Assembly: GCA_028532855.1 (NCBI GenBank) | Contig: JAQQAL010000022.1 | Span: 4,844 to 68,843, forward strand | Direction: 5' to 3' | Source: Candidatus Thalassospirochaeta sargassi | Lineage (GTDB): Bacteria; Spirochaetota; Spirochaetia; UBA9216 | Length of the DNA stretch: 64,000 bases | Shown: positions 1 through 23,337 of the stretch, piece after piece | How positions within the stretch are numbered: the first letter of the stretch is position 1 | How the letters are laid out: each line of letters opens with the position of its first letter | The notes under the pieces: model-generated | What the model was told of the DNA's origin: nothing | The model's database searches: none | Seen by the model: only the letters and a program-made list of their open reading frames with translations | Program-made: the position numbers and the translations under genes

Positions 1-555
1 TTTGCGATTTTACCATTCTATATCCCAATGTTAATTGCGGTTGATTTGAGATTTCTAAGAATTTTACGATTAACAAGACTGTTACGAGTATTAAAAATAA
101 ATCGATACACAAATTCCCTCAAGTTAATTGTAAAGGTGTTAAAAAGAAAAAAGGAAGAACTGATTGTTACCATCTTTGTAATGGTGATAATGTTATTATT
201 GTCTGCTTCGATAATGTATTATTTAGAAACAGATGCACAGCCGGAAGCTTTCCCAAATATAATAGCCGCATTCTGGTGGGCTATAGCAACCTTAACGACT
301 GTTGGTTATGGAGATGTATATCCAGTAACAGTTTTGGGAAAAGTTTTAAGTGCAATTATTGCTGTTATAGGAATTGGAATAGTTGCATTGCCTACAGGAA
401 TCATAAGTTCTGGATTTATTGAAGAGATAAATAAAGAAAATATAAGAAGTAGAAAAAATAGAAGGAAAAAGAATATTAGGAATTTAGAGAGAAGGAAACA
501 GAAAAGAAGATACAATACTAAAATAAAGAAAATAAATGGTTTTAAGGGTGAATAA
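1..555 (+). CDS. Voltage-gated K+ channel (6TM Kv-like), 5'-truncated at the window edge
   Basis: The reading frame is open from nt 1. It has an S4-like RxxRxxR segment (LRILRLTRLLRVLK), a pore helix with the K+ selectivity filter TTVGYGD, and a basic C-terminal tail. Confidence 0.8.
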   Translation, partial: FAILPFYIPMLIAVDLRFLRILRLTRLLRVLKINRYTNSLKLIVKVLKRKKEELIVTIFVMVIMLLLSASIMYYLETDAQPEAFPNIIAAFWWAIATLTTVGYGDVYPVTVLGKVLSAIIAVIGIGIVALPTGIISSGFIEEINKENIRSRKNRRKKNIRNLERRKQKRRYNTKIKKINGFKGE

Positions 556-575
556 TTAAAATACTTGGAGAAGAG

Positions 576-1382
576 ATGAATATATTTGAAGAAATTGGAG
601 AAATATTCCCCGAATTAGATGTGCTCTCTTTTTTGTTGCCAACTACTGATGATGAATTATTGAAAAAATATAGTTCGACTATTGATAATTATAATAATCT
701 AAAAACACTGCCAGTAAAATTTAATGAAATATTCGCCTCGAATGGGTGGATAGCTACTGATGATCTATCAGTACCAGTAATGAAAGAATCTATAGAAATA
801 TATAAAAAAGAAGGTATAGGAAAAGCAGAAGACTTTTTGGTTAATGAATTTACTGAAGATTATTTTTATAATAATTTAAGAAGAATGTGTGCTGTATGGG
901 TTTTTGAAGATAGAAAAGATTTAATAGAACTAGCATATAAAGACCATTCTAAAGAAAGATATCACGCCTCTGTGCCGGTAGTTTTAGCACAAATTGATGG
1001 AATAATTCATGATATTGCGAATCAAAGTTTTTATGAATTAGATAAGAAATTAGATATATTTAAAATAGATAGCGCAATAACCGGATTAAAAAATGAATTG
1101 CATACGATAGCTAAAAAGATGAATAAAACAAGGAATGAGACGAAGAACTCTCCATTATCATTTCCGTATCGTAATGGAATAATACATGGGCGTGATTTAA
1201 ATTATAGTAATAAATATGTCTCTACAAAATGTTTTTTTAATTTATTTGCAATTAGACCATGGGCTTTATTTATTCAGCAAAATGAGATGAAAAAAAGGCA
1301 AGGCGCTGAGTTTATAGATATACCTAAGTTGAAAATAGGAAAAAAATTGGATGAAAAGATTGAAAAATTATTAAAGGATTAG
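576..1382 (+). CDS. Hypothetical cassette protein carrying a possible HEPN-like Rx4H motif (RNGIIHGRD)
   Basis: 268-aa ORF followed directly by attC1. The motif SFPYRNGIIHGRDLNY resembles the HEPN R-x4-6-H signature (HepT/Abi-like). There is no other recognisable domain. Confidence 0.5.
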   Translation: MNIFEEIGEIFPELDVLSFLLPTTDDELLKKYSSTIDNYNNLKTLPVKFNEIFASNGWIATDDLSVPVMKESIEIYKKEGIGKAEDFLVNEFTEDYFYNNLRRMCAVWVFEDRKDLIELAYKDHSKERYHASVPVVLAQIDGIIHDIANQSFYELDKKLDIFKIDSAITGLKNELHTIAKKMNKTRNETKNSPLSFPYRNGIIHGRDLNYSNKYVSTKCFFNLFAIRPWALFIQQNEMKKRQGAEFIDIPKLKIGKKLDEKIEKLLKD

Positions 1383-1403
1383 TTTGCTTTGAAGAAAAAT
1401 CTT

Positions 1404-1534
1404 CATAACAAGCAGTTGGAGCAGTCCTGACTATTGTCACGATTCTGGCAAAGACGTTCGCTGATCGCTCACTCCAGAATCGCGCCAATACCTCGGAAGA
1501 CCTCGGCCGTCAGGCAGCTCAACTGGTCGTTATA
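1404..1534 (+). repeat. Integron attC site 1
   Basis: R''-like cATAACAa at about 1405, an internal gattctgg...ccagaatc hairpin, and the conserved 3' arm cgccaatacctcggaagacctcggccgtcaggcagctcaactggtcGTTATAA. Confidence 0.8.
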
Positions 1535-1592
1535 AATAATAAAGACTTGCGTGTTATAGTAATATATGTTACAGTAAAATATATTACGTTAT

Positions 1593-2939
1593 TTGAGGTT
1601 TTTTATGAAGTTCTATGCAAGAGAACGTGAGTTGGAGCTACTCGAGAAACAATACACCCAGGTTAAAGATAAATCGATCATGACTGTGATAACTGGAAGA
1701 AGGCGAATAGGGAAAACATCACTGTCAAAATTATACGCTAAGAATAAGAAAACTCTCTATCTGTTCATTTCAAAGAAGGATGAAGTGCTCCTTTGTGAAG
1801 AATTTATAGAAAGAATCAAAGCAGAATTTAATATACCCGTAATTGGGGATATAAGAAAGTTTCGTGACCTATTCAAATTAATAATGGAAATAGGTAAGAA
1901 AGAGAAAATTGTAGTAATTATTGACGAGTTTCAGGAATTCTTTCAGATTAATGAATCAGTATATTCAGAAATACAAAATTTATGGGATGAATATAAAAAC
2001 CAAGCGAAAGTACATCTAATTTTTATAGGATCAATTTATTCATTGATGCATAAAATATTTAAGAATAGTAAAGAACCACTATTTGGAAGAGCTGACAGGA
2101 TATTATATCTAAAGGCTTTTCCTCCAAAAGTTATAAAAGAAATTTTATCAGATAATAAGAAGTATAGTGTAAATAATTTATTTGTAAATTATTTATTGAC
2201 TGGAGGTGTCCCAAGATATCAAGAGATATTGTTGGATAATGAAAAATATTCTGAAGAAGAAATACTGGATTTCTACTTTGAAGTAGATTCTCCGTTTATT
2301 GAAGAGGGACGGACGATTCTGATTGAAGAATTTGGAAAAGAATATGGAACATATTTTTCGATATTAGAACTAATGTCAGATGGAAGAACATCACGAAGTG
2401 AAATAGAATCAATCTTAGAAAAAGATATTGGTGGATATTTAGAAAAATTAGTTACAGATTACGATATAGTGGGAAAGATAAAACCTATAGGTTCAAAACC
2501 GACTGGAAGAATACAGAAGTATTATATAAAAGATAATTTTTTGAAATTCTGGTTTAGATTTGTTTATAAATATCGTTCTGCAATAGAGAATAATAATTAT
2601 TTATATATAAGAAAGAATATAGAAGAAAATTTAAGAACCTATAGCGGTCCGATACTTGAAAGACTATATCATGAAATATATCGAAACTCTGGAAATTATA
2701 ATGAAATAGGAAATTATTGGGAGAAGGGTAATCAAAATGAAATTGATTTAGTCTGTATAGATGAGATGAATAAGAGAATGATTATTGGTGAAATTAAAAT
2801 GAATAAAGATAAAGTAAATATGAAGAAGTTGAATGAAAAATCTAAGAAATTGATCAAGAAATATAAAGAATATGAAATTGAAGAAGTAGGGCTCGGATTG
2901 CAGGATTTAGATGAGGTATTAGAAGAAAAATATTTATAA
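1593..2939 (+). CDS. AAA+ ATPase (Arch_ATPase/DUF234-type ATP-binding protein)
   Basis: Walker A ITGRRRIGKTSL and Walker B VVIIDEFQEF; 448 aa; followed by attC2. Confidence 0.7.
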   Translation: MRFFMKFYARERELELLEKQYTQVKDKSIMTVITGRRRIGKTSLSKLYAKNKKTLYLFISKKDEVLLCEEFIERIKAEFNIPVIGDIRKFRDLFKLIMEIGKKEKIVVIIDEFQEFFQINESVYSEIQNLWDEYKNQAKVHLIFIGSIYSLMHKIFKNSKEPLFGRADRILYLKAFPPKVIKEILSDNKKYSVNNLFVNYLLTGGVPRYQEILLDNEKYSEEEILDFYFEVDSPFIEEGRTILIEEFGKEYGTYFSILELMSDGRTSRSEIESILEKDIGGYLEKLVTDYDIVGKIKPIGSKPTGRIQKYYIKDNFLKFWFRFVYKYRSAIENNNYLYIRKNIEENLRTYSGPILERLYHEIYRNSGNYNEIGNYWEKGNQNEIDLVCIDEMNKRMIIGEIKMNKDKVNMKKLNEKSKKLIKKYKEYEIEEVGLGLQDLDEVLEEKYL

Positions 2940-3048
2940 CAAAAGATTTGGAGCAGTCTTAGCTATTGTCACGAAGTTTGCTAATGCAAACTTCCCGCCA
3001 ATGCCCTCGAAGACTCGGGCCGCTAAGCAGCTCAAATCGTCGTTATGT
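2935..3048 (+). repeat. Integron attC site 2
   Basis: TATAACAaaagatttggagcagtcttagc ... gctaagcagctcaaatcgtcGTTATGT. The 5' and 3' arms are reverse complements with bulged bases. The ORF stop TAA overlaps R''. Confidence 0.85.
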
Positions 3049-3079
3049 TTATCGAAAATTTTGGAGAAATTAAAAGTAA

Positions 3080-4153
3080 GTGAATAATACCGATTGGGAT
3101 GAATATGAAAATATAAAAGACAATATCATTTATCTGGATTGGAACATCATTTCTTATTTAAATAAGGGATTGGATCTTCATAATGAAATGGATAGAAAAA
3201 TATATTGTTTATCTTATGTTATGAATAATATTCTTAACCGAAGGAAATGTGTATTCCCGTATAGTAATGGACATTTTTTAGATATAAAAATGGGTTCTGA
3301 TGAATTAATTGATAATTGCTTGCAACAGCTTTTCGATATATCCGGTGGTTGGGAAATATATGAAAACCCAAGAAATCAAGATGAATTAATGATTATTAAA
3401 ACTAATATCCGAGAAAGATATAGGGAATATTCAGACTATCTTGATAAACAGAATGAATATGCAAATAAGAATAAAGTGAATTTAGAAAAATTGATTCAAC
3501 CTTATCGGGATAATGCTAATGTAATTATTGCAAATAATAATCTTAAGAATACAGATGTTGATATGGTGAATAAAGTATTTGATGCATTAATGTACGGTGA
3601 AGATCAATCTCCACAAATTGAAGTCATGAAATTAAACAAGTTTTTAAGAAATATTAAGGGCGAGAAGAAAATCAAATATCCAAATTCATAAAAATGTATA
3701 GAGGATTTTGAAGAAAATAATATAGAAAAAGAATTTGATAAGATGTTTGAAGAAAGTGATTTGCCTTATAGCACATGTGATGATTTTCTTAAGATCATTG
3801 TTGATGTTCCGATATTATCTGAATTTAAGAATAAAATAATTAAATTATGTGCATTGTCAGATATGTTAGGGTTTACATCTGAAAAGACTAAAAAGAAGAC
3901 TTCATTTCAGAGTACAATTAACGATCAGTGTCATCTCTCATATGGATTAAAAACAAAATATTTTGTAACAGAAGATAAGAATCTATATAAAAAGGGGCTT
4001 TTAATAAAAAAATACTTAAAATTAAATGTTGAAGTATTTAAAATTGATGATTTTATAATAAAAATATTAAGATTAATGAAGAAAGATAAGAAAAAAATCG
4101 AGTTGATTGTTAAAAGTGAAAATGGAGATGAAATTTATAGATATGAAGCATGA
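3080..4153 (+). pseudogene. Cassette ORF interrupted by a single in-frame TAA (3689-3691); ORFs 3080..3691 and 3743..4153 share one frame
   Basis: Both ORFs are in frame 2 with no other stop between 3692 and 3743. No attC lies between them. A single attC3 follows the second ORF. Confidence 0.45.
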
Positions 4154-4155
4154 AA

Positions 4156-4272
4156 ACATAACAAGAGATTTGGAGCAGTCTTAGCTATTGTCACGGAAAT
4201 TTTGCTTGCGCAAAATCCGCGCCAATGCCCTCGAAGACTCGGGCCGCTAAGCAGCTCAAATCGTCGTTAAAT
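4156..4272 (+). repeat. Integron attC site 3
   Basis: cATAACAagagatttggagcagtcttagctattgtcacg...cgccaatgccctcgaagactcgggccgctaagcagctcaaatcgtcGTTAAAT. Confidence 0.85.
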
Positions 4273-4370
4273 ACACGAAAAGGGTAAATTATAAAAATGT
4301 TAGGATATTTTTGTTGATGGGTGTAAAATAAAAGGAAGAAATCGCCCGGACCTCCGGCCGACGGGCGATA

Positions 4371-5195
4371 ATGGAATGCTACAATATCTATAGGATTTTA
4401 TATAAAATGTTTTATTTAGGGATAATATTTATTTTCACAATGGCAATATTCTTTAGGATTAAAATTAAAAGGAATAAAACTGTTGATAGTTTTGAGGAAA
4501 AGAACAAATACGATCCTAATTTTTTTACTGAAGATGGGAAGGAGAAGCATATTTTTGAATATATCTTTATTCAGGATAAGTTTCCTGATGAAGGTTCAAT
4601 ATTGATAGAATATAATGAACAAAAAAATCAAATTTATAAAGAGAATAAAGCACGTTATAAGAATATACCAGATGATGAATTACAGTATATAAGTATATTT
4701 GATCTGGAGAAAAATAGTGTAAATGAATTAAAGAATGAAGGAATTGTAAATCCTACATTTATTGGGCGAAAGTATAAAATAGTTAAGAATAAACTACTTA
4801 TTAACGTTTGGGAAATACCATCATTAACCGATTCATTCATCAATGGAAGAAAAGAAAAAGATTTAAAAATTGCTTTAGGAAATCTTATACATAAAAAGTT
4901 GAATATTGATATAGGATTTATTGATGATTTTAGAGGTCCTCTTAGGAAGTATCTTTACTTTCATCAATCAATCCAGACGACTTTTCAGAGTGAATATGGT
5001 ACGCCAATGTTTATTGAGATATTTGGAATAGTTGTGCATGTTAATGGAAAGGATATTATTGATCCTGATATAAAAGAAAATGGATTTCGAAGATCTCTTG
5101 AAGAAGAACTTCCAGGGCCAATTATTATAAGAGTCTTGCAAGCCAATTGGTCAAAAATTAGTTATCCAGGGGTTAATGTTCCATGTTATATGTAA
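4371..5195 (+). CDS. Hypothetical cassette protein with an N-terminal transmembrane anchor
   Basis: 274-aa ORF with a hydrophobic N-terminus (LGIIFIFTMAIFF); followed by attC4. No recognisable domain. Confidence 0.5.
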   Translation: MECYNIYRILYKMFYLGIIFIFTMAIFFRIKIKRNKTVDSFEEKNKYDPNFFTEDGKEKHIFEYIFIQDKFPDEGSILIEYNEQKNQIYKENKARYKNIPDDELQYISIFDLEKNSVNELKNEGIVNPTFIGRKYKIVKNKLLINVWEIPSLTDSFINGRKEKDLKIALGNLIHKKLNIDIGFIDDFRGPLRKYLYFHQSIQTTFQSEYGTPMFIEIFGIVVHVNGKDIIDPDIKENGFRRSLEEELPGPIIIRVLQANWSKISYPGVNVPCYM

Positions 5196-5307
5196 ATACA
5201 ATTGAATATGAAAAATTATAAATATTTAATTTGAATTAATTATATTAGGATATTATTTAAGAAAGAAATCAAGCTTTGACTCCGTCGTACAGCTTGATAA
5301 GAAACGG

Positions 5308-5444
5308 TATTTAACAAGAGATTTGGAGCAGTCTTAGCTATTGTTCACGATTCTGGCGGAGACGTTCGGCTGATCGCCTCTCTCCAGAATCGCGCCAATG
5401 CCCTCGAAGACTCGGGTCGCTAAGCAGCTCAAATCGTCGTTATA
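5308..5444 (+). repeat. Integron attC site 4
   Basis: ATTTAACaagagatttggagcagtcttagctattgttcacgattctggcggagacgttcggctgatcgcc...cgccaatgccctcgaagactcgggtcgctaagcagctcaaatcgtcGTTATAA. Confidence 0.85.
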
Positions 5445-5664
5445 AGTAACCAAGGAATGGGTTTACAAAAGTCTAAGGACATCGTTTACATTTAAGGATG
5501 GAAATGTTTAAGAAGAGATATCAAAAATTATTAATACAGTTGTAATGTTTGTATTGCTTGTAATAGAAATCATTCGTTGTGAGATCTACTTGAGCAAGAA
5601 TAAAGGATAATACAATTATGGGAATCGAGACTTCGTAAAAAAAGATAAGGTTTTGGGTTAGAAA

Positions 5665-6240
5665 ATGATAAGTATAAAATGGGAAGAGATAAAGACAATA
5701 GACCATTCAAAGTATAGGGACTTTGAACGTTTTAGGAATTTTACATTAGCTGAATATGAAAAAGTTAAGAAGGGCTATGTAAACAATGAATGGGTTCTGG
5801 ATTGGAGTAATGATAAACTGAATTGTATTAAAAAAACTGGAGAAATAATATATGAAATAAAATTTACCCATGATGAAAATACTGTTCACATTGAAACAAC
5901 TGATGTAAAAGTGAAGTATGAAGAGGATAAGACAGTATTAAATAATGATAAAGAATACCACCATAGTTTGATACATGATCTTTTTGGATATTTATTAATG
6001 TTTAAAGGTAAAATAAAATTTACTGAAGTAGAAAATATGGTAAAATTTTTCAAAAAATTTGTACTTTTGTATAGAGGTCAAAAGATATTAAAAGTAACTG
6101 ATTTAATGAAGGTTTCTAAAGAAATTACTTGGAAATATCAAATTAATGGAATCGCGTTTTCTGAACCTATTAATCTTAATGGTTATATTAGTGATGAGAC
6201 TAACGAGATTATGTTTACAGCTGAATATCATTTATTATGA
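5665..6240 (+). CDS. Hypothetical cassette protein
   Basis: 191-aa ORF between attC4 and attC5. No recognisable motif. Confidence 0.5.
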   Translation: MISIKWEEIKTIDHSKYRDFERFRNFTLAEYEKVKKGYVNNEWVLDWSNDKLNCIKKTGEIIYEIKFTHDENTVHIETTDVKVKYEEDKTVLNNDKEYHHSLIHDLFGYLLMFKGKIKFTEVENMVKFFKKFVLLYRGQKILKVTDLMKVSKEITWKYQINGIAFSEPINLNGYISDETNEIMFTAEYHLL

Positions 6241-6357
6241 AGAGATGATTATTATGGGGAAGCACAATCTGATGAATGATATTAGTAATGTTAATTGAGA
6301 GAAAAGAAAAGGATAGTTTCAATGATGAAAGAGGTCTATCCTATTTTGGAGAAGTAC

Positions 6358-6497
6358 TTATAACAAGAGATTTGGAGCAGTCTTAGCTATTGTCATGATT
6401 CTGGCAGAGACGTTCCGCGCTGATCGCGCTCCACTCCAGAATCGCGCCAATGCCGCTGAAGACAGCGGCCGCTAAGCAGCTCAAATCGTCGTTATGC
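6358..6497 (+). repeat. Integron attC site 5
   Basis: TTATAACaagagatttggagcagtcttagctattgtcatgattctggcagagacg...cgccaatgccgctgaagacagcggccgctaagcagctcaaatcgtcGTTATGC. Confidence 0.85.
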
Positions 6498-6512
6498 ACC
6501 CGCAGAGCGGGT

Positions 6513-7397
6513 ATGGAAAAAATATCTTTAATAAATTTAATGTTTCAGGTTGCAATAACTGTAAATTTTAAAGATATAGGAGCTAATGGTAATAAAGGTA
6601 AAATAGATTTGGTGAATAAAATGATAAAGTGTACAAATGAAAATAAAAATGAATTACTTACTTTTTTAAAACATAATCCTGCAGAGAATTGTTTCATTAT
6701 AGGTGATTTAGAGAATTACAGTATGGATGAAGAATTCATTGAAATATGGATGATAAGAAAAAAGAAAAATATAACAACCGTATTATTGAGGTTTTATAAT
6801 TACTATACTGTTTCCACCCATGATGAAGATGATATAGAAGAAATTATTAATCATCTAAATGCTGAAAAAGAATTAATAACATTAACTGGCGTAGAATCCG
6901 TGATCGATAAAATCTCGAAAGGAATGGAATTCTCTAAAATTAAAAGAGCAAATTTTGCGGAATTAATAGAAATAAAGAATTATAAAGAAAATTTGCTAAT
7001 TGATATTAAAAAAGCAAATATTGAAGAGATTAATGAATTATTTGAATTCCATAAGAGTATAAAAGAATTTGAAGTAAAAGAAGAAAGCAAAGAAAATTTT
7101 GGAAAAGAATTATTGGATAATACTGGAAGAATTTATTATACAAGAGAAAATAAAAAAATTGTATCGATGGCAATGATAACAGCAGAGAATAGCGTAAATG
7201 GGATGATAATGGGTGTGGCAACAGCCCAAAAATATAGAAGAAAAGGATATGCGAGAGCAATAGTTCAAGAAATATGCAAAAGTATGATTGATAATGGGAA
7301 ATCTGTAGTATTATTTTATGATAATCCAGAAGCAGGGAAAATGTATAAGGAAATTGGATTTGAAGATATAAATCGCCAAGCGACAATATATGCATAA
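6513..7397 (+). CDS. GNAT family N-acetyltransferase, cassette-borne
   Basis: C-terminal GNAT motif A (QKYRRKGYARAIVQEI) with a following YDNPEAGKMYKEIGFE. The track ORF starts at 6450 inside attC5. The start was moved to the ATG at 6513 (MEKISLINL). Confidence 0.7.
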   Translation: MEKISLINLMFQVAITVNFKDIGANGNKGKIDLVNKMIKCTNENKNELLTFLKHNPAENCFIIGDLENYSMDEEFIEIWMIRKKKNITTVLLRFYNYYTVSTHDEDDIEEIINHLNAEKELITLTGVESVIDKISKGMEFSKIKRANFAELIEIKNYKENLLIDIKKANIEEINELFEFHKSIKEFEVKEESKENFGKELLDNTGRIYYTRENKKIVSMAMITAENSVNGMIMGVATAQKYRRKGYARAIVQEICKSMIDNGKSVVLFYDNPEAGKMYKEIGFEDINRQATIYA

Positions 7398-7507
7398 CAA
7401 GCAGTTGGAGCTGTCTTATCTATTGTCACGGAAATTTTGCTTGCGCAAAATCCGCGCCAATACCCTCGAAGACTCGGGCCGCTAAGCAGCTCAACTGGTC
7501 GTTATGT
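7393..7507 (+). repeat. Integron attC site 6
   Basis: cATAACAagcagttggagctgtcttatctattgtcacggaaattttgcttgcgcaaaatccgcgccaataccctcgaagactcgggccgctaagcagctcaactggtcGTTATGT. Confidence 0.85.
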
Positions 7508-7579
7508 TTACATGGAATATATACTATAGTAACGTATAAAAAGCTTGTGAATTATATGATTTACTGGTAAAATGATCAA

Positions 7580-8758
7580 ATGGAAGAATTACTATATCAA
7601 TACAACCCTTGGTGGTCAGACGAATTCGATGTTGAGGATCTAATAATTAGAACCAATTACTTCAACAAATTAAAAAGGAATGTAGAAAATAAATCAATTA
7701 TCTTTCTGACTGGATTAAGAAGAGTTGGGAAGACAACTCTTATGAAATTGTTGATACAAGATTTAATAGAGTCAGGGATAGAAACTAAAAATATATTCTA
7801 TATAAGTTTAGATGATTACGTTTTGATAGATAAACCGTTAAGAGATATTCTTACGGAATATAGAAAGATTCATAAATTATCAATGAAAGATAAGGTGTAT
7901 ATCTTCTTTGATGAAATAACATATTCAAAGGATTATCATCAGCAATTAAAAAATATTTATGATACTCAGAACACTAAAGTGTTTGCTACATCTTCGTCAA
8001 GTTCTTTGTTAAAGGATAAAAAAGCATTTTTAACTGGTAGAGCGATTACATATGAAGTTAAACCACTTGATTTTAATGAATATTTAAAATTTAAGAATAT
8101 AAAAGTGAAAAAGAGTGAAGGATATTTATTAGAAACATATTTTAAAGATTATATGCGAGAAGGCGGAATGCCAGAAAATGTTCTTAATCCTAGTAGAGAA
8201 TATTTAATGAATTTGATAGATGATATAATCCAAAAAGATATAACAGCCTATAATGGTTTAAGAAACCATCAGATTGTCAGGGATTATTATACTTTGTTAA
8301 TGGAGAGAAGTGGAAAGCAATTAAGCATAAATAAAATAGGAAATATTCTGAAACTGTCAGTAGATACAGCACGAAGATATTTGGGGTATTTTGAAGAAAC
8401 TTATTTAATACATTTGTTATCACGGTATGGAAAAACAAATGAAAAATTGCTATCGGCAAAAAAAATATATGCATGTGATCTAGGGATAAAACATCTTTTC
8501 ATAGGTGAAAGAGATTTAGGAAGCTATTTAGAAAATTATATATATCTCAAGATGAGGAATAATAAAGACTTATTTTATTTATATGAAAATGGGAATGAAA
8601 TAGATTTTATTACAAGAGATGGGATATTAATAGAATCAAAATATTTTTCAGAGATGAATGAGAAACAAAAGAAACTATTTGAAGAAACAGAAGCAACTGC
8701 AAAGTATGTTATAGACAATATTAAAAAGCTTGAAATCCTAGAAGAATTCGAAACATAA
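7580..8758 (+). CDS. AAA+ ATPase (COG1373-like, DUF4143-type ATP-binding protein)
   Basis: Walker A FLTGLRRVGKTTL and Walker B VYIFFDEITY; 392 aa; followed by attC7. Confidence 0.7.
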   Translation: MEELLYQYNPWWSDEFDVEDLIIRTNYFNKLKRNVENKSIIFLTGLRRVGKTTLMKLLIQDLIESGIETKNIFYISLDDYVLIDKPLRDILTEYRKIHKLSMKDKVYIFFDEITYSKDYHQQLKNIYDTQNTKVFATSSSSSLLKDKKAFLTGRAITYEVKPLDFNEYLKFKNIKVKKSEGYLLETYFKDYMREGGMPENVLNPSREYLMNLIDDIIQKDITAYNGLRNHQIVRDYYTLLMERSGKQLSINKIGNILKLSVDTARRYLGYFEETYLIHLLSRYGKTNEKLLSAKKIYACDLGIKHLFIGERDLGSYLENYIYLKMRNNKDLFYLYENGNEIDFITRDGILIESKYFSEMNEKQKKLFEETEATAKYVIDNIKKLEILEEFET

Positions 8759-8869
8759 CAAGAGATTTGGAGCAGTCTTAGCTATTGTCATGGAAATTTT
8801 GCTTACGCAAAATCCGCGCCAATGCCCTCGAAGACTCGGGTCGCTAAGCAGCTCAAATCGTCGTTAAAC
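8754..8869 (+). repeat. Integron attC site 7 (last complete site)
   Basis: ACATAACAagagatttggagcagtcttagctattgtcatggaaattttgcttacgcaaaatccgcgccaatgccctcgaagactcgggtcgctaagcagctcaaatcgtcGTTAAAC. Confidence 0.85.
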
Positions 8870-10523: not shown

Positions 10524-10684
10524 TCTAATTCCTTAGCAGAGTTTATAGGACTTCTTCTTGTTTTTAAAATAATTAAGAAACTATCTGTGTGACTGTAAGA
10601 CTGACATACAAATAGTTTCACATAGAAAAATGCTTTCGTCAAGAAAAATGTTATGTTTTAAAAGATAATAAAAACCTTCTCTTT

Positions 10685-11335
10685 ACCGGCTACCGCCCAT
10701 GAACCTTCTTCCGCATCCAGCCTATAACCCGGCTCACGGACTGCTACCGCAGACCGTCGGCTTCTATCCCGGCAGGGTTGCAAAAACCCGCGCCGAGGAC
10801 GTCGCTCCTGTTTTTGCTCTGCGGCCAATCGCTCCTGTTTCCGGCAACCGCGCTGCCACGCTCTCTTTGCCGGGCCTGCTAATAAAGCCTCTGCCGGCAC
10901 GTGCAGCTGCCGCGCATCCATGCGCGGCAATAAGGGTAAACTTTTCATGTAACTTTACCGGTCCTCATCAAACAGCCGTCCAGTAGAAATCGGGCAGGGT
11001 AGGTAATCTCTTCGTCTTTTCGGGAAGCACAATCAGTGCACTTGTATTAGAGAACCGGAACAGACTACCGGCCGGCTGCTATCTTCGGCCCGATTTTTAC
11101 GGCTTCCATCCGGACCAGCGCTGTTAAGGTAATTTATTGTATTTCTCCCCCCTCCCGTCCCCCCGTTGGGGGGAGCGTCCGGACTCCAGCCGTAAAAAAG
11201 GCCCGCGCAGCCGCCGTGTTTCACACCGCGGCCCCTATACATCATCATAAACCTATTCCCCGATTTGGATTCTTCATCATTGCCCGTCTCCGGCAAAACC
11301 GAAGGCTGTGCCTTCAGTTCAACCTCTGCCACTAA
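10685..11335. other. ~650 bp GC-rich island (~60% GC by eye) in an AT-rich context; probably non-coding, function unknown
   Basis: Composition shifts abruptly. The only ORFs are three mutually overlapping ones on both strands with Arg/Ala/Pro/Gly-rich low-complexity translations. It contains C/G-tract hairpins (tccccccgttgggggga; ggccgcggtgtgaaacacggcggc on the minus strand). Confidence 0.3.
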
Positions 11336-11403: not shown

Positions 11404-12120
11404 TTAAATCAATCTAACTTCGATATTTTCATTAAGGTAATCTCGCCATCTTTTCCAGTCGGGGTAAACCTTTGTCAGCAGCTTAAAAAAGCGGAGGCTG
11501 TGGTTATGTTCAATTATGTGGCATAGTTCATGGAATATAACGTAATCGATGCATGGTTTCGGTGCTGCTACGAGTTCGGGATTCAGATATATTCTTCCTT
11601 CTTTTGTACAGCTTCCCCAGCGCTTCGGCATTGTTTTAACTTTCAATTCAGGGATATTTATCACTTCGATTACAGAAAATGAGTTAACGCATTTCTGCAT
11701 TCTTTCATAGAATATCTGTCGCCCCTTTTCTTTATACCAATCAAGAAGAAGTTTTTCTTTTTTTTCAATAGTAAAATCTTCAGGTGTTGAAAGGTGGAAT
11801 CTTCCATTTTTTAATTTTACTTCAGGAGGACCGTTAAAAACTTTAAGCCTATATTGTTTCCCGAGATATCTGAACGTTTCTCCGTTATTATATTTTGGTT
11901 TAGGTTGAGCCGGCTGTATACGATCAAATTTGAGTTGTTGTTTATATATCCAGGAAGAACGTTTTCTGACTTTTTCCATTATTTTATCGATCGAAGCATC
12001 TTCCGGTGCTATGACTTCAACATGCTTATCCGGATAAACATGAATTGCAAGCGTTTTCCTGTTCCTGCGGTCGAGATCGAACCGGATTTCAGTTTTACCG
12101 TATCGGACGTTATAGTTCAC
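11404..12120 (-). CDS. YgjP-like (DUF45/M48-like) zinc metallopeptidase; last gene of the type I R-M operon
   Basis: WGSCTKEGRIYLNPELV...DYVIFHELCHIIEHNHS (HExxH). It overlaps the hsdR stop by 11 nt. Confidence 0.85.
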   Translation of the reverse strand: MNYNVRYGKTEIRFDLDRRNRKTLAIHVYPDKHVEVIAPEDASIDKIMEKVRKRSSWIYKQQLKFDRIQPAQPKPKYNNGETFRYLGKQYRLKVFNGPPEVKLKNGRFHLSTPEDFTIEKKEKLLLDWYKEKGRQIFYERMQKCVNSFSVIEVINIPELKVKTMPKRWGSCTKEGRIYLNPELVAAPKPCIDYVIFHELCHIIEHNHSLRFFKLLTKVYPDWKRWRDYLNENIEVRLI

Positions 12121-15100
12121 GATGTTTGGCTATCTCCAGAGATTGTTCGATGATTCGGTCTATTGCGTCATAATCCCATGAAAGGTCATAACGCCCCTTT
12201 ATCTGGAAAAGGTAGTCCTCAATGTCATTAAAAATTTTATTATGCACACTTGAATCATTTATCCAATCCCGCTTCTTGTGTTTATAAATTATATCATCAA
12301 CCTGTTTGGCTACATCCGAAGCAATATAAGCAGGAGTTTTTTCGCAAACCATATCATTCGGTAGTTCTTCAGCAATTAAGCGATAGTAAGGTCTTGCCGA
12401 TTCATGTTTTTTCAGCTCATCGGGAACATCGCTTCCGCCGCTTTCTCTCATCTCGTTCATTGCTTCACGTACTCTATTCAGATACTCGGCGTCCGATAAC
12501 CTCTTCGCTCTATGTTCGGCTATAGCCTCACTTATGATTTCTGATAACCGTTTATAGAGCAGGGGATCTTCCTGCATTTTTTCATGGATGGTTTTCTTCA
12601 TTCTGGAAGCAATTGTATCCGCTTTAGCTGCGTCTCCCTCAATACCTTCAAGTTCTCTTTCAAAGTCATCAATATTAAACAGATCAACGGGCTCTATTAT
12701 ATTTTTCACTTCATCGGCACCGATATATTTATTTACCATATTACGTATTTGTATTTCGTATGAAGAATAATCGACGGTTTCACCGAATCGTTGTTTGATA
12801 GTGTTTCTTAATGAGATGAACATTTTGAGATCGCTTTTATATCTCTCGATTGTATCAGATGAAGTATGTTCAAGAAATGCGGCATTAGAAAGGGCAAGGC
12901 GAAGCGTGTTGAAAAAAATTCTTAATGTTTCATAGAAACGATGCCGCACATCCTCTGGTTCAAGATGAAGCTGCATTGCTTCTGTATCTGTTTTATTGGC
13001 TATTTCAGAAAATATTGCCCAGAGATTGGTATGATACTCATGCAGTTTCGTGATTTCATCGGTTGTAGTAGTTAGTGTTCCGATGATATCTTCACGATCA
13101 AATCCTTTCTCTTCGAGGGTGTTGTAAAGCTCGATGGCCTCGTTGAGCTGTCCGAAAATACCCCTGTAATCAATAATTAAACCGTATTCCTTTCCGTCGT
13201 ATAATCGGTTGACGCGGGCTATAGCCTGTAAAATGTTATGTTCCTTGAGTCTTTTATCAATATAGAGGACCCCGTTTCTCGGTTCATCAAAACCGGTAAG
13301 GAGCTTGTGTATAACAATAATAATTTCAGGATCATCAGAATTGTGAAATCTGTCTATTATCGTATCCTGATAGGCTTTCGGAGTTCCGAATCTGTCCATC
13401 ATTGATTTCCAGAATCTCTGTACTTCAGGTATATTTGATTCGTCAACCTCGCTATGATCGGTTCTTGTATCAGGCGGAGACATAACTATTTCTGTGCTTA
13501 TATCACCAAGCTCATCAAAGCAGTTTTTGTATTTTACCGCCTCCAGTCGTGAAGATACGGCAAATTGTCCTTTCAAACCCGATTTACGAAATTGGCTGTA
13601 GTGCTGAATAATATCATATGTAATCTCTTTAAGCCTATCGTCGGATTTGGTAAGTTCCTCCTCTCGTCTGAACCTTTTTTTCAGATCCAGCTTCTGATCT
13701 TCGGTGAGATCTGATGTTATTCGTTCAAACCATTTGTCTATCTGATTGCGATCCCCCCGCAGTTCGCTCATTCTTCCTTCGTAAATAAGGGGAGTAACCG
13801 CCCGGTCGGCTATAGCCTGATTCATTGTATATGAATGAATAAATCCCCCGAACTTTCTTGCCGTACTTTTTTCATTCCTTAAAAGCGGTGTTCCGGTAAA
13901 ACCGATATAACATGCATTCGGGAAAACCCGTTTCATATTTGCATGTGCAGAACCGTATTGCGAACGATGACTTTCATCCACAAGTACAAATATATTTCTG
14001 CTTTCCGATTTCAGTTTGTTCTTTCTGAGTCCCGCTTCAAATTTATCGATTATTGTCGTGATAATACTTGCCTTGTTCTCTTCAATCAATTTAAAGAGGT
14101 TTTCGCCGCTGGTTGCCCGCTTTACAGCTTTTCCACAGTTCTTGAAGGTTTTATATATCTGATCATCGAGATCAACTCTGTCCGTTACGAGTATAATCCT
14201 CGGATCAATTATCGAACTTTCAAGGCTGATTGCCTTTGCCAGAAGCACCATCGTAATTGATTTGCCAGAACCGGTTGTATGCCATATAACTCCGCCCTGT
14301 CTCGGTAAATCTCCTTTCGCCTTCGTTATTTTTGAAACAGTTTCCTTTACTGCAAAGTATTGCTGGTAGCGGGGAACCTTCTTTATTTTGTTGTCGAAAA
14401 CGACGAATGATTGCGTCAATTCCAGAATACGTTCAATCCGTAATAGGCTGTATATAGTTCTATCCTGCTCAGAAGGTTTTCTGTCGCCGGCATTCCAAAT
14501 CTCCAACATCTTTTGTTTTTGCCAATCAGGTCTTTCGGAAAAAAGATGCGTCAGTGTTGATTCATCAAGTTTTTTATTAATCGAATGATTTAACTTTGTC
14601 TCATCTGTAGAATCGTATTCCTCTCTCCATATGGACCAGAATTTTTCAGGGGTTCCTGCAGTTGCATATGATGCCTGGTTCTGAGCAATGGAAAAAAGGA
14701 GCTGGCTATACACAAAAAGGTGGGGGATTTCATCAACACCCTGATTGCGTATATGCTGGCTGATACCTTCTTTTATAGAATCGGGTTTATCGGGTCTCTT
14801 TGCTTCTATTACGGCGAGCGGAATACCGTTTACAAAAAGCACAATATCGGGCTTTCTTGTTCTCCGGCTGTGTCGCTGTTCGATAATAAACTCATCGCAA
14901 ACATGGAAAACATTATTTTCCGGATTGTCCCAGTCGATGTAATTAAGTGAAAAGCTTTTTGTATATCCTTCAATTGTCTGCTCAAAACTCTTGCCGAGTG
15001 TTATCAGATCATAAATGAGTTCATTCGTAGTAATCAGACTGTCAAACGGAACCTCGCGTATCTCCTGAACTGCCTTTTCAATATTTGATTCAGTAAATTT

Positions 15101-15301
15101 GTGATTTTTTCCTTTAAATGAAAAAGAGTTTATTTTATGAAGCTGTTCTCTGAGTATTTTATCCAGTATCGGTTGATGAAGCCTGCCTCCCCGCATGGAT
15201 TCGCATTCAGAAGGTGTAATATATTCATATCCAAGATTGATAAGCTGTTTGAGTGCCGGGATAAGTGAAATTAGATCTTCCTGATATTCAGAAATTGACA
15301 T
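12110..15301 (-). CDS. hsdR: Type I restriction enzyme R subunit
   Basis: 1063 aa. Helicase motif I TTGSGKS and DEAH-like VLVDESHRSQ. N-terminal nuclease region. Sits in an operon with hsdM and hsdS. Confidence 0.9.
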   Translation of the reverse strand: MSISEYQEDLISLIPALKQLINLGYEYITPSECESMRGGRLHQPILDKILREQLHKINSFSFKGKNHKFTESNIEKAVQEIREVPFDSLITTNELIYDLITLGKSFEQTIEGYTKSFSLNYIDWDNPENNVFHVCDEFIIEQRHSRRTRKPDIVLFVNGIPLAVIEAKRPDKPDSIKEGISQHIRNQGVDEIPHLFVYSQLLFSIAQNQASYATAGTPEKFWSIWREEYDSTDETKLNHSINKKLDESTLTHLFSERPDWQKQKMLEIWNAGDRKPSEQDRTIYSLLRIERILELTQSFVVFDNKIKKVPRYQQYFAVKETVSKITKAKGDLPRQGGVIWHTTGSGKSITMVLLAKAISLESSIIDPRIILVTDRVDLDDQIYKTFKNCGKAVKRATSGENLFKLIEENKASIITTIIDKFEAGLRKNKLKSESRNIFVLVDESHRSQYGSAHANMKRVFPNACYIGFTGTPLLRNEKSTARKFGGFIHSYTMNQAIADRAVTPLIYEGRMSELRGDRNQIDKWFERITSDLTEDQKLDLKKRFRREEELTKSDDRLKEITYDIIQHYSQFRKSGLKGQFAVSSRLEAVKYKNCFDELGDISTEIVMSPPDTRTDHSEVDESNIPEVQRFWKSMMDRFGTPKAYQDTIIDRFHNSDDPEIIIVIHKLLTGFDEPRNGVLYIDKRLKEHNILQAIARVNRLYDGKEYGLIIDYRGIFGQLNEAIELYNTLEEKGFDREDIIGTLTTTTDEITKLHEYHTNLWAIFSEIANKTDTEAMQLHLEPEDVRHRFYETLRIFFNTLRLALSNAAFLEHTSSDTIERYKSDLKMFISLRNTIKQRFGETVDYSSYEIQIRNMVNKYIGADEVKNIIEPVDLFNIDDFERELEGIEGDAAKADTIASRMKKTIHEKMQEDPLLYKRLSEIISEAIAEHRAKRLSDAEYLNRVREAMNEMRESGGSDVPDELKKHESARPYYRLIAEELPNDMVCEKTPAYIASDVAKQVDDIIYKHKKRDWINDSSVHNKIFNDIEDYLFQIKGRYDLSWDYDAIDRIIEQSLEIAKHREL

Positions 15302-15310
15302 TAAAAACTC

Positions 15311-16705
15311 CTATTTATCAATACCATATTTTCTTGCCTTTTCCCAGAATGACCTCTTGCGGCCGTGTTCTGCCTTTATCCTACTGAAATAATCGGCATG
15401 AGATTCGAGATTGTCCGGATACTGAGTAATTCGTTCATCGAGAATAATCAGTTCTCTCAGGTACCCGATGCCGTATTTATATGCTTTAGAATAAGCTCGC
15501 CTTAAAATGTCGTTCAGAAGCGCCCGGTACAATACTACCTGTCCGCATAACGCATTATCTGGTCCGAGCTGCTCGAGGATGTTTAGGATGGATGTGTAGC
15601 CTAATGTCTCGAAATCCGCAGCATCATTTATCAGTCTTTGTTCTGCCTCTGCAATTTTATTCAAATAGAGAAGAACCGGAACTGCCCGCTCAGGCTGGGG
15701 ATCATTAAGGGCTGTTTTTACAGCTTCTGCAAGAATCTTTTTGTGGGTGCCCGGTTCCGCAATTGAATGGTATTCTTTTAAATAATACAGACACGGATTT
15801 TCTTTCCATTTTCTCTCCTGCAAAATACGTAGTTGTTCCGTATCTCCCGTCAACTCAAACAGCTTTTTATATAATTCATCCCTGTCGGAATTAAATCTGA
15901 TTTGCCAGGTTGTTTCCTCGAGTAATTCCCTGGCTTTTTTGAAGTCAGAGAATTGTAGATAGATTTGAATAAGTCTTTTTATCTGAAGATTATTCGGTTC
16001 AGGATTACGAATACGTAAAGCCTCTTCGTAAGCTGCCGGATTATGCATGGCGATAGCGATTTGTTCCATATTTATTTCAAAACCGGCGGCGGTATGATCA
16101 TAGCCTTCGATATTGGAGCAGTCCCAATCAAGCAGTCGGTTTTTATAGATATAGTAAATTTTCTGCAATGAATCAGGAGTAAACAAAATATCCGCAGAGT
16201 TAAGTATCAGCTCCCGGCAGCCGTAATCATTGCCGTCTGCTATATCCATGATTAAGGGAATCCAGTATTCGTCCGCTTTTTTCGTTCCGGCTGCTGCTTC
16301 GAGCCAGAGAATGCAGAATTGATTGAGTTCAGTACCGACTGCGCCTCCACTGTCGTCGACATTTTCGATGATGCTTCCGTCGTTGCGCAATACAAAGTCG
16401 GCCAAGCGCCACGCTTCATCAGGGGCTGAAGGTAGTAGTGTTTCGGTAATTTCTTCGCGAAGGTCTGCAATCTCTTCAGCGAAATCAAAACTGCTGTTGT
16501 AATTTATAAACTGATTTGACTCAATCCAGTTGTTGATCCTTTTTTTAAAGAATGCGGCAACAGTGCTGTAATCATCTTTGTTAAGGCGGTTATCAATGTA
16601 ACTGCTGATTCTTTCATCCTGCTTTTGGTAGATACTCATTATTAGTTCAATGAGTTCGTTTTTTGTCATATCCTCAAGCTTGTTTTTTACTTCTTCAAAA
16701 TCCAT
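15311..16705 (-). CDS. Hypothetical protein embedded between hsdS and hsdR
   Basis: 464-aa ORF, 10-14 nt from each neighbour on the same strand. No recognisable catalytic or NTP-binding motif. Probably helical. Confidence 0.6.
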   Translation of the reverse strand: MDFEEVKNKLEDMTKNELIELIMSIYQKQDERISSYIDNRLNKDDYSTVAAFFKKRINNWIESNQFINYNSSFDFAEEIADLREEITETLLPSAPDEAWRLADFVLRNDGSIIENVDDSGGAVGTELNQFCILWLEAAAGTKKADEYWIPLIMDIADGNDYGCRELILNSADILFTPDSLQKIYYIYKNRLLDWDCSNIEGYDHTAAGFEINMEQIAIAMHNPAAYEEALRIRNPEPNNLQIKRLIQIYLQFSDFKKARELLEETTWQIRFNSDRDELYKKLFELTGDTEQLRILQERKWKENPCLYYLKEYHSIAEPGTHKKILAEAVKTALNDPQPERAVPVLLYLNKIAEAEQRLINDAADFETLGYTSILNILEQLGPDNALCGQVVLYRALLNDILRRAYSKAYKYGIGYLRELIILDERITQYPDNLESHADYFSRIKAEHGRKRSFWEKARKYGIDK

Positions 16706-16719
16706 AAGAATAACCCTGC

Positions 16720-18009
16720 CTAAACCTTCACCCGGATTTCGCCGGTTAGCAGTTTCTGCATAAGGCCGCGTTTTTGGGATTTTATATTCTCTAATGTTTT
16801 TTTTAGGTAACTCAAATCAGCACGGAAGGTTTTTATTATATTTACTATCTCTTGCTGTTCTTTCAAAGGGGGGATTATCAAATTAATTCCATAAAAATCT
16901 GCTTTTGAAATATTAAGCAAGCCATGTGCTCTTGCACCGACCTGAACTCTACCGTTTAGTTCTATATTACAAAGACCAGACTCAAAATACTCATCAATAT
17001 ATGCTAAATTTACATTTGATTCATCTATCGCAAAACATATATATAATGTGGATAAGACACCGGCATCATATTTATCAAGAATCTTTATAGCACCAAAAGG
17101 ATATCCTTTCATTGAACTTCTGTTATATGCAAATTCATTTTTCTTTAATAAATAATAGTTTGAAAGATTTTCTCCGGATACGTTTCTTTTAAAATATTCT
17201 TTCTGGTCTACAAGACCGTTTGTTCCAGATGCCGTTAGTACATGGGAAGATTCGCCATTATTTTTACGTGTGATATCAATAGCAATATCTTTGAGTTTAA
17301 TTTTCTTCCATCCATCTAAAATTATATTATTACTGTTTGTAGGAAAACCAAAACCAGGTAATCTTCTCTTTCCGGTAAAAAGCTCATTCATTAACCCTTT
17401 TTTTCGTTTTTCTTTAAGTTCAATCAGCTTTTCAAGCTTCTCTATTGCCTCATCCCAGGTTGAGAGGATTTCGGCGATCTTTTTCTGTTCGGAGAGAGGC
17501 GGGATTGCTATAATGAAAGCTCTAACATCACCTTTCGTAATATTTGGATCTTTTCTACTGCTTGCGGCATAATTTCTCCAGCGATTTATTTCACCATTTA
17601 GATAATGAAGGAGATACTCTGAATGATGATTTTTACTTGGAAACATTGCCGACAGAGCTTGATTGCATGATGCTCTTTTCTTTAAAATCCCAGTCCGGCC
17701 GATTTGTTTGAATCCACCATACATTGCCACAAAAACAGTATCTATTGGTAAAAGTTTACAAGAACATTCAATTAGAGCAATATCAGTGATGCACTCTTCT
17801 GTATTTACGATTTCACGATTATTTAGATCTGTAGTTTTTACCCATGGATGAATACCATCTTTAAAATAGCGAACGTATTCTCCTCTATAAGGAGTTGTTC
17901 CACTCACAATTTTTGTAACATCCTTTAGTCGTTTTGTATTCCACTCTTCAGGTATCCAGCCAATCTTTGTTTCTTTATACCCGGGGCGTCCTTCGTTTAC
18001 TTTCGTCAT
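16720..18009 (-). CDS. hsdS: Type I restriction-modification specificity subunit with two target-recognition domains (TRDs)
   Basis: 429 aa. Conserved central and C-terminal coiled repeats (SEQKKIAEILS...LMNELFTG ; KEQQEIVNII...LMQKLLTG). Directly abuts hsdM. Confidence 0.85.
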   Translation of the reverse strand: MTKVNEGRPGYKETKIGWIPEEWNTKRLKDVTKIVSGTTPYRGEYVRYFKDGIHPWVKTTDLNNREIVNTEECITDIALIECSCKLLPIDTVFVAMYGGFKQIGRTGILKKRASCNQALSAMFPSKNHHSEYLLHYLNGEINRWRNYAASSRKDPNITKGDVRAFIIAIPPLSEQKKIAEILSTWDEAIEKLEKLIELKEKRKKGLMNELFTGKRRLPGFGFPTNSNNIILDGWKKIKLKDIAIDITRKNNGESSHVLTASGTNGLVDQKEYFKRNVSGENLSNYYLLKKNEFAYNRSSMKGYPFGAIKILDKYDAGVLSTLYICFAIDESNVNLAYIDEYFESGLCNIELNGRVQVGARAHGLLNISKADFYGINLIIPPLKEQQEIVNIIKTFRADLSYLKKTLENIKSQKRGLMQKLLTGEIRVKV

Positions 18010-20417: not shown

Positions 20418-20490
20418 GATAAACCTCCGGATAAAAAAACACCCGCCGAATTACGCTTGCAAAGCAGAGGCGCGGCAGGTTTGCTATAAT

Positions 20491-20519
20491 TAATATAATC
20501 CGAAAACGAGCGACTGTCA
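20491..20519 (-). promoter_or_regulatory. Putative sigma70-like promoter for the abi-hsdM-hsdS-orf-hsdR-ygjP operon
   Basis: On the minus strand: TTGACA, a 17-nt spacer, then TATATT. It lies ~75 nt upstream of the Abi ATG. Confidence 0.4.
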
Positions 20520-20558
20520 ACTTTTGGTAAGCTGAAATTAAGTAATAATCCTGTCATT

Positions 20559-21137: not shown

Positions 21138-21269
21138 TTATACTGATTTTACTCATGTTAATGCATTATGTCAATGAATAAGTGTTTTATTACATAATTT
21201 ATGCTTGACGTTTGAATTGTTTGGAATTATATTCCAATCATAAGATTTGTCATTGTAAAAAACGTAATC

Positions 21270-21949: not shown

Positions 21950-21966
21950 TGACCTTACCCCCAGAT

Positions 21967-22794: not shown

Positions 22795-22805
22795 CGCTGT
22801 TCGTT

Positions 22806-23226: not shown

Positions 23227-23337
23227 TTTGCCAGCGATGGAGATGACCGCAATGGATCAGAAGAAAGAATTTATTCTACTCTGGAAATCCGGGCAGTATA
23301 GTTTCAGTCGGAAAACACAAAAGATAAATTCCGAATA

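Follow-up and report, generated by a model that had tools for sequence, protein, structure and literature searches.

An integron-type cassette array of 'Candidatus Thalassospirochaeta sargassi' and a candidate insert-less recombinase platform

The DNA analyzed here is a 64,000-nucleotide (nt) stretch of contig JAQQAL010000022.1 of 'Candidatus Thalassospirochaeta sargassi' (the window), whose first part, positions 1-8869, very probably represents a genuine integron-type cassette array. Between window positions 1403 and 8869, a repeat finder, a regular-expression scan, and an alignment concurred in locating seven repeats of 115 to 140 nt, all on the + strand, with one or two + strand open reading frames (ORFs) directly 5' of each. 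A previous reading made from the letters alone (the sequence-only reading) had described seven co-oriented elements, each 3' of a + strand ORF, and all seven were found again. The sites, termed attC1 to attC7, are located at 1403-1535 (133 nt; R'' box TCATAAC, R' box GTTATAA), 2934-3048 (115 nt), 4156-4272 (117 nt), 5309-5445 (137 nt), 6358-6497 (140 nt), 7392-7507 (116 nt), and 8753-8869 (117 nt). Their mean column identity was 78% (alignment, n = 7) with almost invariant arms, and a 24-nt piece of the 3' arm, GCTAAGCAGCTCAAATCGTCGTTA, was matched six times at no more than three mismatches versus 0.00 expected from 100 shuffles. A covariance model trained on the seven window sites, and then scanned over the 64 kb and related loci, recovered just its seven full copies in the 64 kb, with + strand scores of 115 to 142 bits and reverse-strand scores of at most 13.7 bits. 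The G+C content was 28 to 32% in the array, 45 to 52% in the sites, and mostly 35 to 48% in the remaining window. Rfam, which contains no attC family, returned no family for the sites, for the leader hairpin, or for the G+C-rich segment described below, either at gathering thresholds or at E values of up to 1.

At its downstream side, the array ends with attC7, beyond which come 390 nt of noncoding DNA and then, on the - strand, a histidine kinase gene. At the opposite side, a Logan contig that is 100% identical to the window (L001) reaches 390 nt upstream of nt 1 and contains an eighth site, whose end lies 364 nt 5' of nt 1; the array therefore continues past the window start. The contigs indexed with the window proteins were Logan unitigs of less than 2 kb, broken at each repeat. 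A truncated site remnant was located on the + strand at 23336-23395, adjoining an IS3-family transposase; it has kept the 5' arm and the central hairpin, and its R'' box and 3' arm are gone. Repeats scattered in both orientations, which the sequence-only reading had named as evidence to the contrary, did not appear: the 64 kb held only the array copies and this one remnant, all on the + strand.

When the - strand was folded as single-stranded DNA (ssDNA), a common architecture was obtained for all seven sites. A terminal R box of 6 to 7 bp (nnnTAAC/GTTAnnn) is followed by a short unpaired spacer, a conserved stem that holds two bulged bases and one mismatch, and a three-way junction from which two hairpins branch, a conserved one at the side and a variable one, of which three types occur. 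The z-scores of the folds ranged from -4.2 to -7.7. On the 5' arm, a G and a T are bulged out and two A residues are mismatched (A.A); in attC6 a T-A pair replaces this mismatch, so that the two bulges are spaced by exactly 6 bp, and in attC5 the side hairpin is a perfect stem (GCCGCTG-AAGA-CAGCGGC). Compensatory changes were detected at 8 pairs among the seven sites: GATTTG/CAAATC is replaced by CAGTTG/CAACTG in attC1 and attC6, and CTTAGC/GCTAAG by CCTGAC/GTCAGG in attC1, so that both variant arms of attC1 are compensated. Arms that pair with bulged bases around a variable hairpin, as predicted earlier, were thus seen both in the folds and in compensated pairs, and the extrahelical bases that were expected upon folding of the bottom strand were present, as C and A.

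The covariance model gathered 37 full-length sites of this type (type A) from the window and the related loci. In their alignment, 93.6% of the cells were paired, and double-sided changes occurred at 19 of 33 pairs, in 133 cells, a level of covariation that was reached by 0 of 500 shuffles and compares with at most 21 cells in slid controls; the alignment is model-fitted and biased toward structure, but the margin over the controls is very large. Arm complementarity of the sites is maintained by selection. The top-strand bulges of the 5' arm were G in 33 and T in 34 of the 37 sites, at positions 16 to 18 and 23 to 24 counted from R'', and the bottom-strand bulged bases, C and A, are accordingly kept in 33 to 34 of 37. 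TAAC and GTTA were invariant or nearly so (36/37 at two positions), and positions four to six of R' were A/T-rich (GTTATAA, GTTATGT, and GTTAAAT), looser than RRRY. The bottom strand folded more stably in 35 of the 37 sites (mean of -26.9 versus -22.1 kcal/mol) and was also the preferred fold in all six type-B/C sites. The sites exhibit features by which attC sites are recognized, namely R'' and R' boxes, an imperfect hairpin whose structure is conserved over its sequence, and a bottom-strand fold preference. The extrahelical bases on the attC bottom strand are usually G and T, with a canonical position and spacing (PMC5027507, PMC7439510); the bulges in our sites match in position and spacing, but not in base identity. 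The G/T bulges of the + strand had led us to consider this strand as the recombining one, which was rejected, since these bulges share the arm with its 5'-AAC. It was further ruled out by the better folding of the - strand, by the canonical linkage of ORFs and sites, and by the phase rule described below, which places the crossover at R'.

In integrons, the crossover takes place between G and TT, so that the last six bases of an array site belong to the next cassette. The R'' box of a site should therefore pair perfectly with the R' box at the upstream border of its own cassette. This phase rule held in all six consecutive pairs of the window, in which the R'' 7-mer was the exact reverse complement of the R' of the previous site, in 7/7 once L001 was included (its GTTATGA against R'' of attC1), and in 21 of 23 consecutive pairs over all arrays fetched. 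Between R'' and the R' of the same site, only 4 to 6 of 7 positions agreed in the window; the average agreement was 5.4 of 7. L029 and L032 also showed the rule between successive sites of other types, as did one attI junction. Inverse-complement ends within each element, as the sequence-only reading had it, are thus limited to TAAC/GTTA; the full 7-mers that it quoted (TTATAAC/GTTATAA and ATTTAAC/GTTAAAT) instead pair the start of an element with the end of the previous one, which is stronger evidence for cassettes than had been realized. As in integron cassettes, the partner of R'' is the G together with the six bases that open the cassette of the same site. In addition, a Fic ORF retains its matched downstream site in two genomes in which the upstream sites differ, and the window array terminates with a site after the last ORF. 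The units are canonical cassettes, consisting of TTAnnn, a leader, one or more ORFs, the site, and G. Since R'' is complementary to the start of its own cassette, these cassettes would move as circles with a crossover between G and TT.

An array related to that of the window was found in a genome of 5.38 Mb (L030, 3647-11337). It lacks an integrase, lies 1 Mb from the recombinase of this genome, and contains deaminase, Fic, RelB-PIN, and Phd-ParE cassettes as well as an ATPase cassette like window cassette 2. The latter is the last cassette (86% identical to window cassette 2) and has no site of its own, the homology stopping exactly after R'' TTATAAC. From this homology we considered cassettes with the site at their 5' end, a reading that was ruled out by ORF-site linkage, strand fold, the phase rule, and the end of the window array. 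Chimeric sites with poorly paired arms of different subtypes were observed in L007 (2314-2453), L002 (2040-2174), and L030 (9791-9932), which suggests homologous exchange or gene conversion among sites within arrays.

No tyrosine recombinase was detected in the 64-kb window by tblastn with IntI1 or by Pfam searches over the ORFs of 1-28 kb, in agreement with the earlier remark that no integrase was in view. The IntI1 query was run on the window and on all loci and revealed no recombinase in any of those searched; likewise, no IntI was present within 10 kb of any array fetched. Scanning a genome collection with the 3' arm pattern yielded eight loci, of which L003, L008, and L009 were dismissed as chance 19-mer matches with no further similarity; from a metagenome scan, L018 was discarded as a bare 20-nt match, and L016 gave weak covariance-model matches only (20.3 and 18.5 bits). 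The site family of the window was found at the end of a 330-kb contig from another Spirochaetales metagenome-assembled genome (MAG), where an aldo-keto reductase gene (-) is followed by a gene for a 358-amino-acid (aa) tyrosine recombinase (+), 446 bp, and co-oriented cassettes up to the contig end, a type-A site among them. A homologue that is 56% identical to this recombinase (P0024; MDC7225961.1) shares one taxon with seven window proteins according to exact protein look-ups, albeit on separate contigs (203,281 bp and 249,762 bp). P0024 is also encoded on a 9.8-kb contig of run SRR22388478, the source of window fragments with 100% identity, in which the reductase gene lies 5' and three cassette sites and an Mrr_N ORF lie 3'.

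Five more platforms displayed the same layout, with a recombinase followed by co-oriented small accessory ORFs between TAAC...GTTA palindromes. Their recombinases were 40 to 66% identical and included one from Marinisporobacter balticus (Clostridia). The products of the platform cassettes include MazEF, HigBA, Mrr, OLD/AAA_15, and AAA_13. Cassettes lay 3' of and co-oriented with the recombinase in all seven platforms examined; type-A sites occurred within the recombinase-headed arrays of L024 and L028. Directly after the stop codon of the recombinase gene, four lineages have an attI-like block in common (GGTTAT..CATG..ATAAA..GAGTTAT), and they diverge immediately after its second GTTAT. R'' of the first cassette agreed with the attI-like junction at 7/7 positions in L028, 6/7 in L025, and 5/7 in L029. 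In M. balticus (L032, 10001-14906), the recombinase family member comprises 418 aa and is followed by cassettes with short sites (74 to 83 nt, TAAC...GTTA) for which the phase rule holds. Firmicutes have been reported to lack complete integrons (PMC4889954). Contigs of 2 to 8 kb with the spirochete-type site family were also encountered in one study in MAGs assigned to unrelated phyla (L002, L004, and L005, Bacteroidales MAG12; L007, Mycoplasmatota MAG22), which probably reflects misbinning of repeat-fragmented arrays and not cross-phylum sharing.

Integron integrases are defined by an extra helix, which is held to enable the recombination of folded single-stranded attC sites. The platform recombinase aligned with VchIntIA in two pieces, with 11 residues against 56 in IntIA, and a 49-residue gap across the IntI-specific region separated it from IntI1. 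The distance between the KGxKxR and HxLRH motifs was 65 to 68 aa in all 36 members in which both motifs were located, versus 106 in IntI1. The recombinase scored 173 to 192 bits with TIGR02249, under the cutoff of 265, and about 205 to 222 bits on a XerA-type NCBIfam model. All family members have the catalytic R, K, HxxR, H, and Y, the C terminus is SPLD, like in IntIs, and the best structural match was VchIntIA (E value, 4e-15), narrowly before XerA. As judged from these comparisons, the platform recombinase is not a canonical IntI. Its first ~60 residues form a confidently predicted beta-beta-alpha-beta-beta-alpha domain, which the Pfam HARP model matched in 28 of 37 members (best E value, 4e-8); P0024 itself scored 18.8 bits, under the 25-bit cutoff. 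The HARP fold is known from eukaryotic annealing helicases, in which it binds forked DNA. Published work regards the IntI insert (I2 helix) as essential for attC recombination (PMC8138268, PMC7790495). The authors of IntegronFinder found merely a handful of non-IntI recombinases adjoining attC sites (PMC4889954), and our literature search, which left most subscription journals outside, yielded no description of a tyrosine recombinase with a HARP domain or of arrays that begin with an enzyme devoid of the insert.

The seven cassettes of the window, all on the + strand, differ in content. Cassette 1 (1-1529) starts 364 nt upstream of the window and contains an ion-channel ORF (1-555; 291 aa at full length in L001) and a second ORF of 268 aa without an assigned family (576-1382). 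Cassette 2 (1530-3042) encodes a 444-aa protein with ATPase_2 and DUF234 domains (1605-2939), which matches the PADLOC candidate PDC-S27 (2e-48), and it recurs in the 5.38-Mb genome of L030 with 86% nucleotide identity. Cassette 3 (3043-4266) comprises a 357-codon frame without an assigned family (3080-4153) that is split by a single in-frame TAA (3689-3691) into ORFs at 3080-3691 and 3743-4153 and is probably a nonsense-mutated cassette gene. In cassette 4 (4267-5439), a leader of ~100 nt with a conserved hairpin (4343-4368) precedes a 274-aa ORF (4371-5195), and cassette 5 (5440-6491) contains a 191-aa ORF (5665-6240), both without an assigned family. Cassette 6 (6492-7501) encodes a GNAT acetyltransferase (probable start at 6513, end at 7397), and cassette 7 (7502-8863) encodes an ATPase with AAA_14 and DUF4143 domains (7580-8758) that matches the PADLOC candidate PDC-S01 (1.4e-73). 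Five cassette ORFs had no PADLOC or Pfam match. In total, two of the seven cassettes are candidate defense cassettes, one encodes the GNAT protein, one the ion channel together with an ORF of unknown function, and three contain only ORFs of unknown function. The sequence-only reading had regarded the cassette ORFs as candidate defense or toxin modules; a defense role appears plausible for the two of the seven cassettes with PADLOC matches, the rest being without such a match. The defense idea builds on a link between chromosomal integrons and defense that has been published (bioRxiv 10.1101/2024.07.02.601686). A scan of the array for promoters and terminators was uninformative (47 promoter-like sites versus 57 expected). 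Inside the ion-channel ORF, window 301-415 showed a weak Rfam match to a eukaryotic potassium-channel RNA editing signal (25.9 bits; E value, 0.13; far under the gathering score), which most likely reflects conserved pore-coding sequence.

Two hairpins recurred in the noncoding parts of the cassettes. The leader hairpin, (G)CCCGGACCTCCGGCCGRCGGGCG, is usually followed by AAGAG and lies at 4329-4368 in the window; elsewhere it was located in L024 (3768-3789 and 6626-6647), L025 (11629-11650), L028 (11149-11170, 16713-16734, and 18890-18911), and L031 (18522-18543). It was always on the cassette strand, shortly 3' of an attC R' box or attI-like site and 5' of differing ORFs. The window leader (4267-4370, ~100 nt) shared 82 to 87% identity with leaders of L015 and L028 that precede unrelated ORFs. 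A second hairpin, CCAGACC-N-CTCCG-N-GGTCTGG, was found just 5' of R'' at many sites (L024, 6420-6470; L025, 12810-12870; L028, 12240-12300 and 18720-18780), and also upstream of the sites of L002 (reverse strand). In L024, at places that lack a site, the second hairpin and the leader motif were apparently fused. By the attI-like site, cassettes of ~400 to 450 nt without an ORF were observed (L025, 11150-11480; L028, 12400-12640; L029, 8456-9258). The motif AATAAAATAAAGCGGATTGATTTGTTCG is common to them, and they may serve a regulatory or promoter function.

Downstream of the array, window 10658-11332 is G+C-rich, with overlapping ORFs on both strands and no Pfam or Rfam match. It was 76% identical to positions 159-705 of the metagenome contig L013, which terminates in the 3' end of a type-A site as well; the segment is therefore conserved beside an array end in a relative. 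A defense island directly 3' of the array (11404-23078) contains genes for a YgjP-like peptidase and for a type I restriction-modification system (HsdR, 12110-15301; DUF6880; HsdS; and HsdM, 18010-19554), followed by AbiD (19527-20417), a 192-aa ORF of unknown function, and a CBASS-like cyclase (21270-22064). The 3' end of the cyclase gene overlaps the IS3 transposase gene (21967-23078), after which comes the attC remnant at 23336-23395. Because this remnant lies beyond it, the island may have been inserted into an array that was formerly longer.

The explanation that we prefer, and hold to be likely even with its inferred steps included, is that a chromosomal array with no fewer than eight integron-type cassettes in 'Candidatus Thalassospirochaeta sargassi' would have its distal end in window 1-8869 and would recombine on the folded bottom strand, as in integrons. 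As the cognate enzyme we propose the IntI/Xer-like tyrosine recombinase whose gene stands at the start of such arrays, in the orientation of the cassettes, both in the six related platforms and on a different contig of this MAG; with respect to this assignment of the HARP-recombinase to these sites, we lean slightly in favor. Whether such arrays represent a distinct, widespread integron-like gene-capture class, with an integrase that is devoid of the I2 insert but has a HARP-like domain, we consider evenly balanced; the proposed class is known here from marine Spirochaetales and the one Clostridia genome of M. balticus. The sites, and probably the recombinase, diverge from the canonical integron family. 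The attC-type sites do bound discrete, co-oriented cassettes, and their homogeneity and chromosomal context fit the sedentary chromosomal integron of the sequence-only reading, with only eight cassettes observed. Strict integron membership was not established, because the platform recombinase lacks the IntI insert and the sites depart from canonical attC; no recombinase with intI_Cterm or the I2 helix adjoined an array in the window or in the related platforms.

Several points weigh against our preferred explanation. The window lacks a recombinase and attI, and its array may not be contiguous with the P0024 platform contig. The insert that published work holds essential is absent from the platform recombinase, and C and A take the place of the usual G and T as bottom-strand bulges. 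Because the related 5.38-Mb genome has a type-A array 1 Mb from its recombinase, the window array may likewise be an orphan cluster, and the reassorted, mismatched arms in related loci, together with the stop codon in cassette 3, imply that the array may be partly decaying. Finally, a canonical IntI elsewhere in the MAG might be the real enzyme, given that the searches covered the window and the fetched loci. In that case the array would be an ordinary integron, with its IntI encoded elsewhere in the genome or upstream of nt 1 and the HARP-recombinase just a neighbor, for instance a Xer-like resolvase. Indeed, both the anatomy of the cassettes and the G|TT phase rule are exactly integron-like, the I2 helix is regarded as essential, and the intI of Treponema is also co-oriented with its cassettes while its product has the insert (PMC3607928 and supplement). 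Yet the insert-less recombinase was directly 5' of the first cassette in 7/7 platforms, the attI-like GTTAT junction followed it in all four platforms that were aligned, IntI was not seen within 10 kb of the fetched arrays, and the conserved, noncanonical bulge identity suggests a different reader of the site; we therefore judge an ordinary integron to be rather unlikely, if conceivable.

Alternatively, the repeats could be a cluster of attC sites lacking an integrase (CALIN), a fossil that stems from rearrangement or secondary-site insertion and no longer moves. No recombinase was present in the 55 kb downstream of the array, a comparable orphan array exists in a related genome, and both the truncated remnant next to the IS3 element at 23.3 kb and the in-frame stop in cassette 3 would fit such decay, but none of the seven sites is damaged, their R''/R' phase is perfect and their arms are compensated, a platform recombinase with an intact catalytic set is encoded in the same MAG, and orphan clusters can remain substrates in trans. 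Overall, we find a fossil cluster unlikely. Dispersed palindromes of the repetitive extragenic palindromic (REP) or miniature inverted-repeat transposable element (MITE) type, or transcription terminators accumulated between genes, might likewise produce G+C-rich palindromes 3' of ORFs in an A+T-rich region. However, the repeats in the 64 kb were neither dispersed nor in both orientations nor untied to gene ends, being confined to the array in a single orientation; their stem is not followed by a T-run, and no + strand terminator was listed at the sites. Moreover, arrays that begin with a recombinase and an attI-like site contained the same sites, and these persisted among genomes in which the genes between them are wholly different. 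The phase rule, which ties every site to the start of its own cassette, the Fic-site linkage, and the terminal site therefore exclude such a reading, which we regard as extremely improbable.

If these arrays do form a distinct integron-like class, their enzyme would either stand between Xer and integron integrases as a natural intermediate or have solved the recombination of folded ssDNA hairpins independently, and the HARP-recombinase would recognize the sites by their conserved C/A bulges and three-way junction. To our knowledge, all genome surveys detect integrons through the extra domain of IntI. If an insert-less recombinase builds these arrays, such surveys would miss a whole gene-capture class, even in phyla thought to be almost integron-free, and the step from Xer to IntI would become open to experiment with a natural enzyme. 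The cassettes represent a pool of compact genes of unknown function, some of which are akin to candidate phage-defense families, and they adjoin a defense island with a type I restriction-modification system, AbiD, and a CBASS-like cyclase.

Among known systems, the array resembles sedentary chromosomal integrons, such as the Vibrio cholerae superintegron with its VCR sites, in its chromosomal location, its co-oriented cassettes, and the G|TT crossover, as well as in its long (>110 nt), homogeneous sites with R boxes, extrahelical bases, and complex terminal structures; toxin-antitoxin and defense-type cassettes are likewise present in the related arrays. In contrast to sedentary integrons, IntI is absent here, the platform recombinase of this lineage has no IntI insert and is co-oriented with the cassettes, and several site types are intermixed near the platform. 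The sites also differ from canonical attC in having C/A instead of G/T as bottom-strand bulges, an unpaired spacer of 3 to 4 nt instead of 5 to 6, and a three-way junction that bears a conserved side hairpin. With the 'inverted' integrons of Treponema (T. denticola and T. succinifaciens), the arrays have in common the spirochete host and a recombinase gene co-oriented with the cassettes, and sites of 115 to 132 bp have been described in T. succinifaciens and T. brennaborense (PMC3607928). However, the Treponema IntI carries the IntI-specific motif, the T. denticola sites have a protruding G, and the published Treponema attC sequences are without similarity to the window sites. With at least two attC-type sites and no nearby integrase, the window also resembles a CALIN as categorized by IntegronFinder, although this label is operational and does not denote a mechanism, and a candidate platform is present in the same genome. 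The recombinase, which scored best on the XerA-type NCBIfam model and has no IntI insert, links the arrays to Xer/dif-type modules (XerA, XerC, and XerD, and the pdif modules of Acinetobacter). The dif and pdif sites are double-stranded cores of ~28 bp in alternating orientation, whereas the sites described here are structured palindromes of 115 to 140 nt in a single orientation, with hairpin covariation and strand bias.

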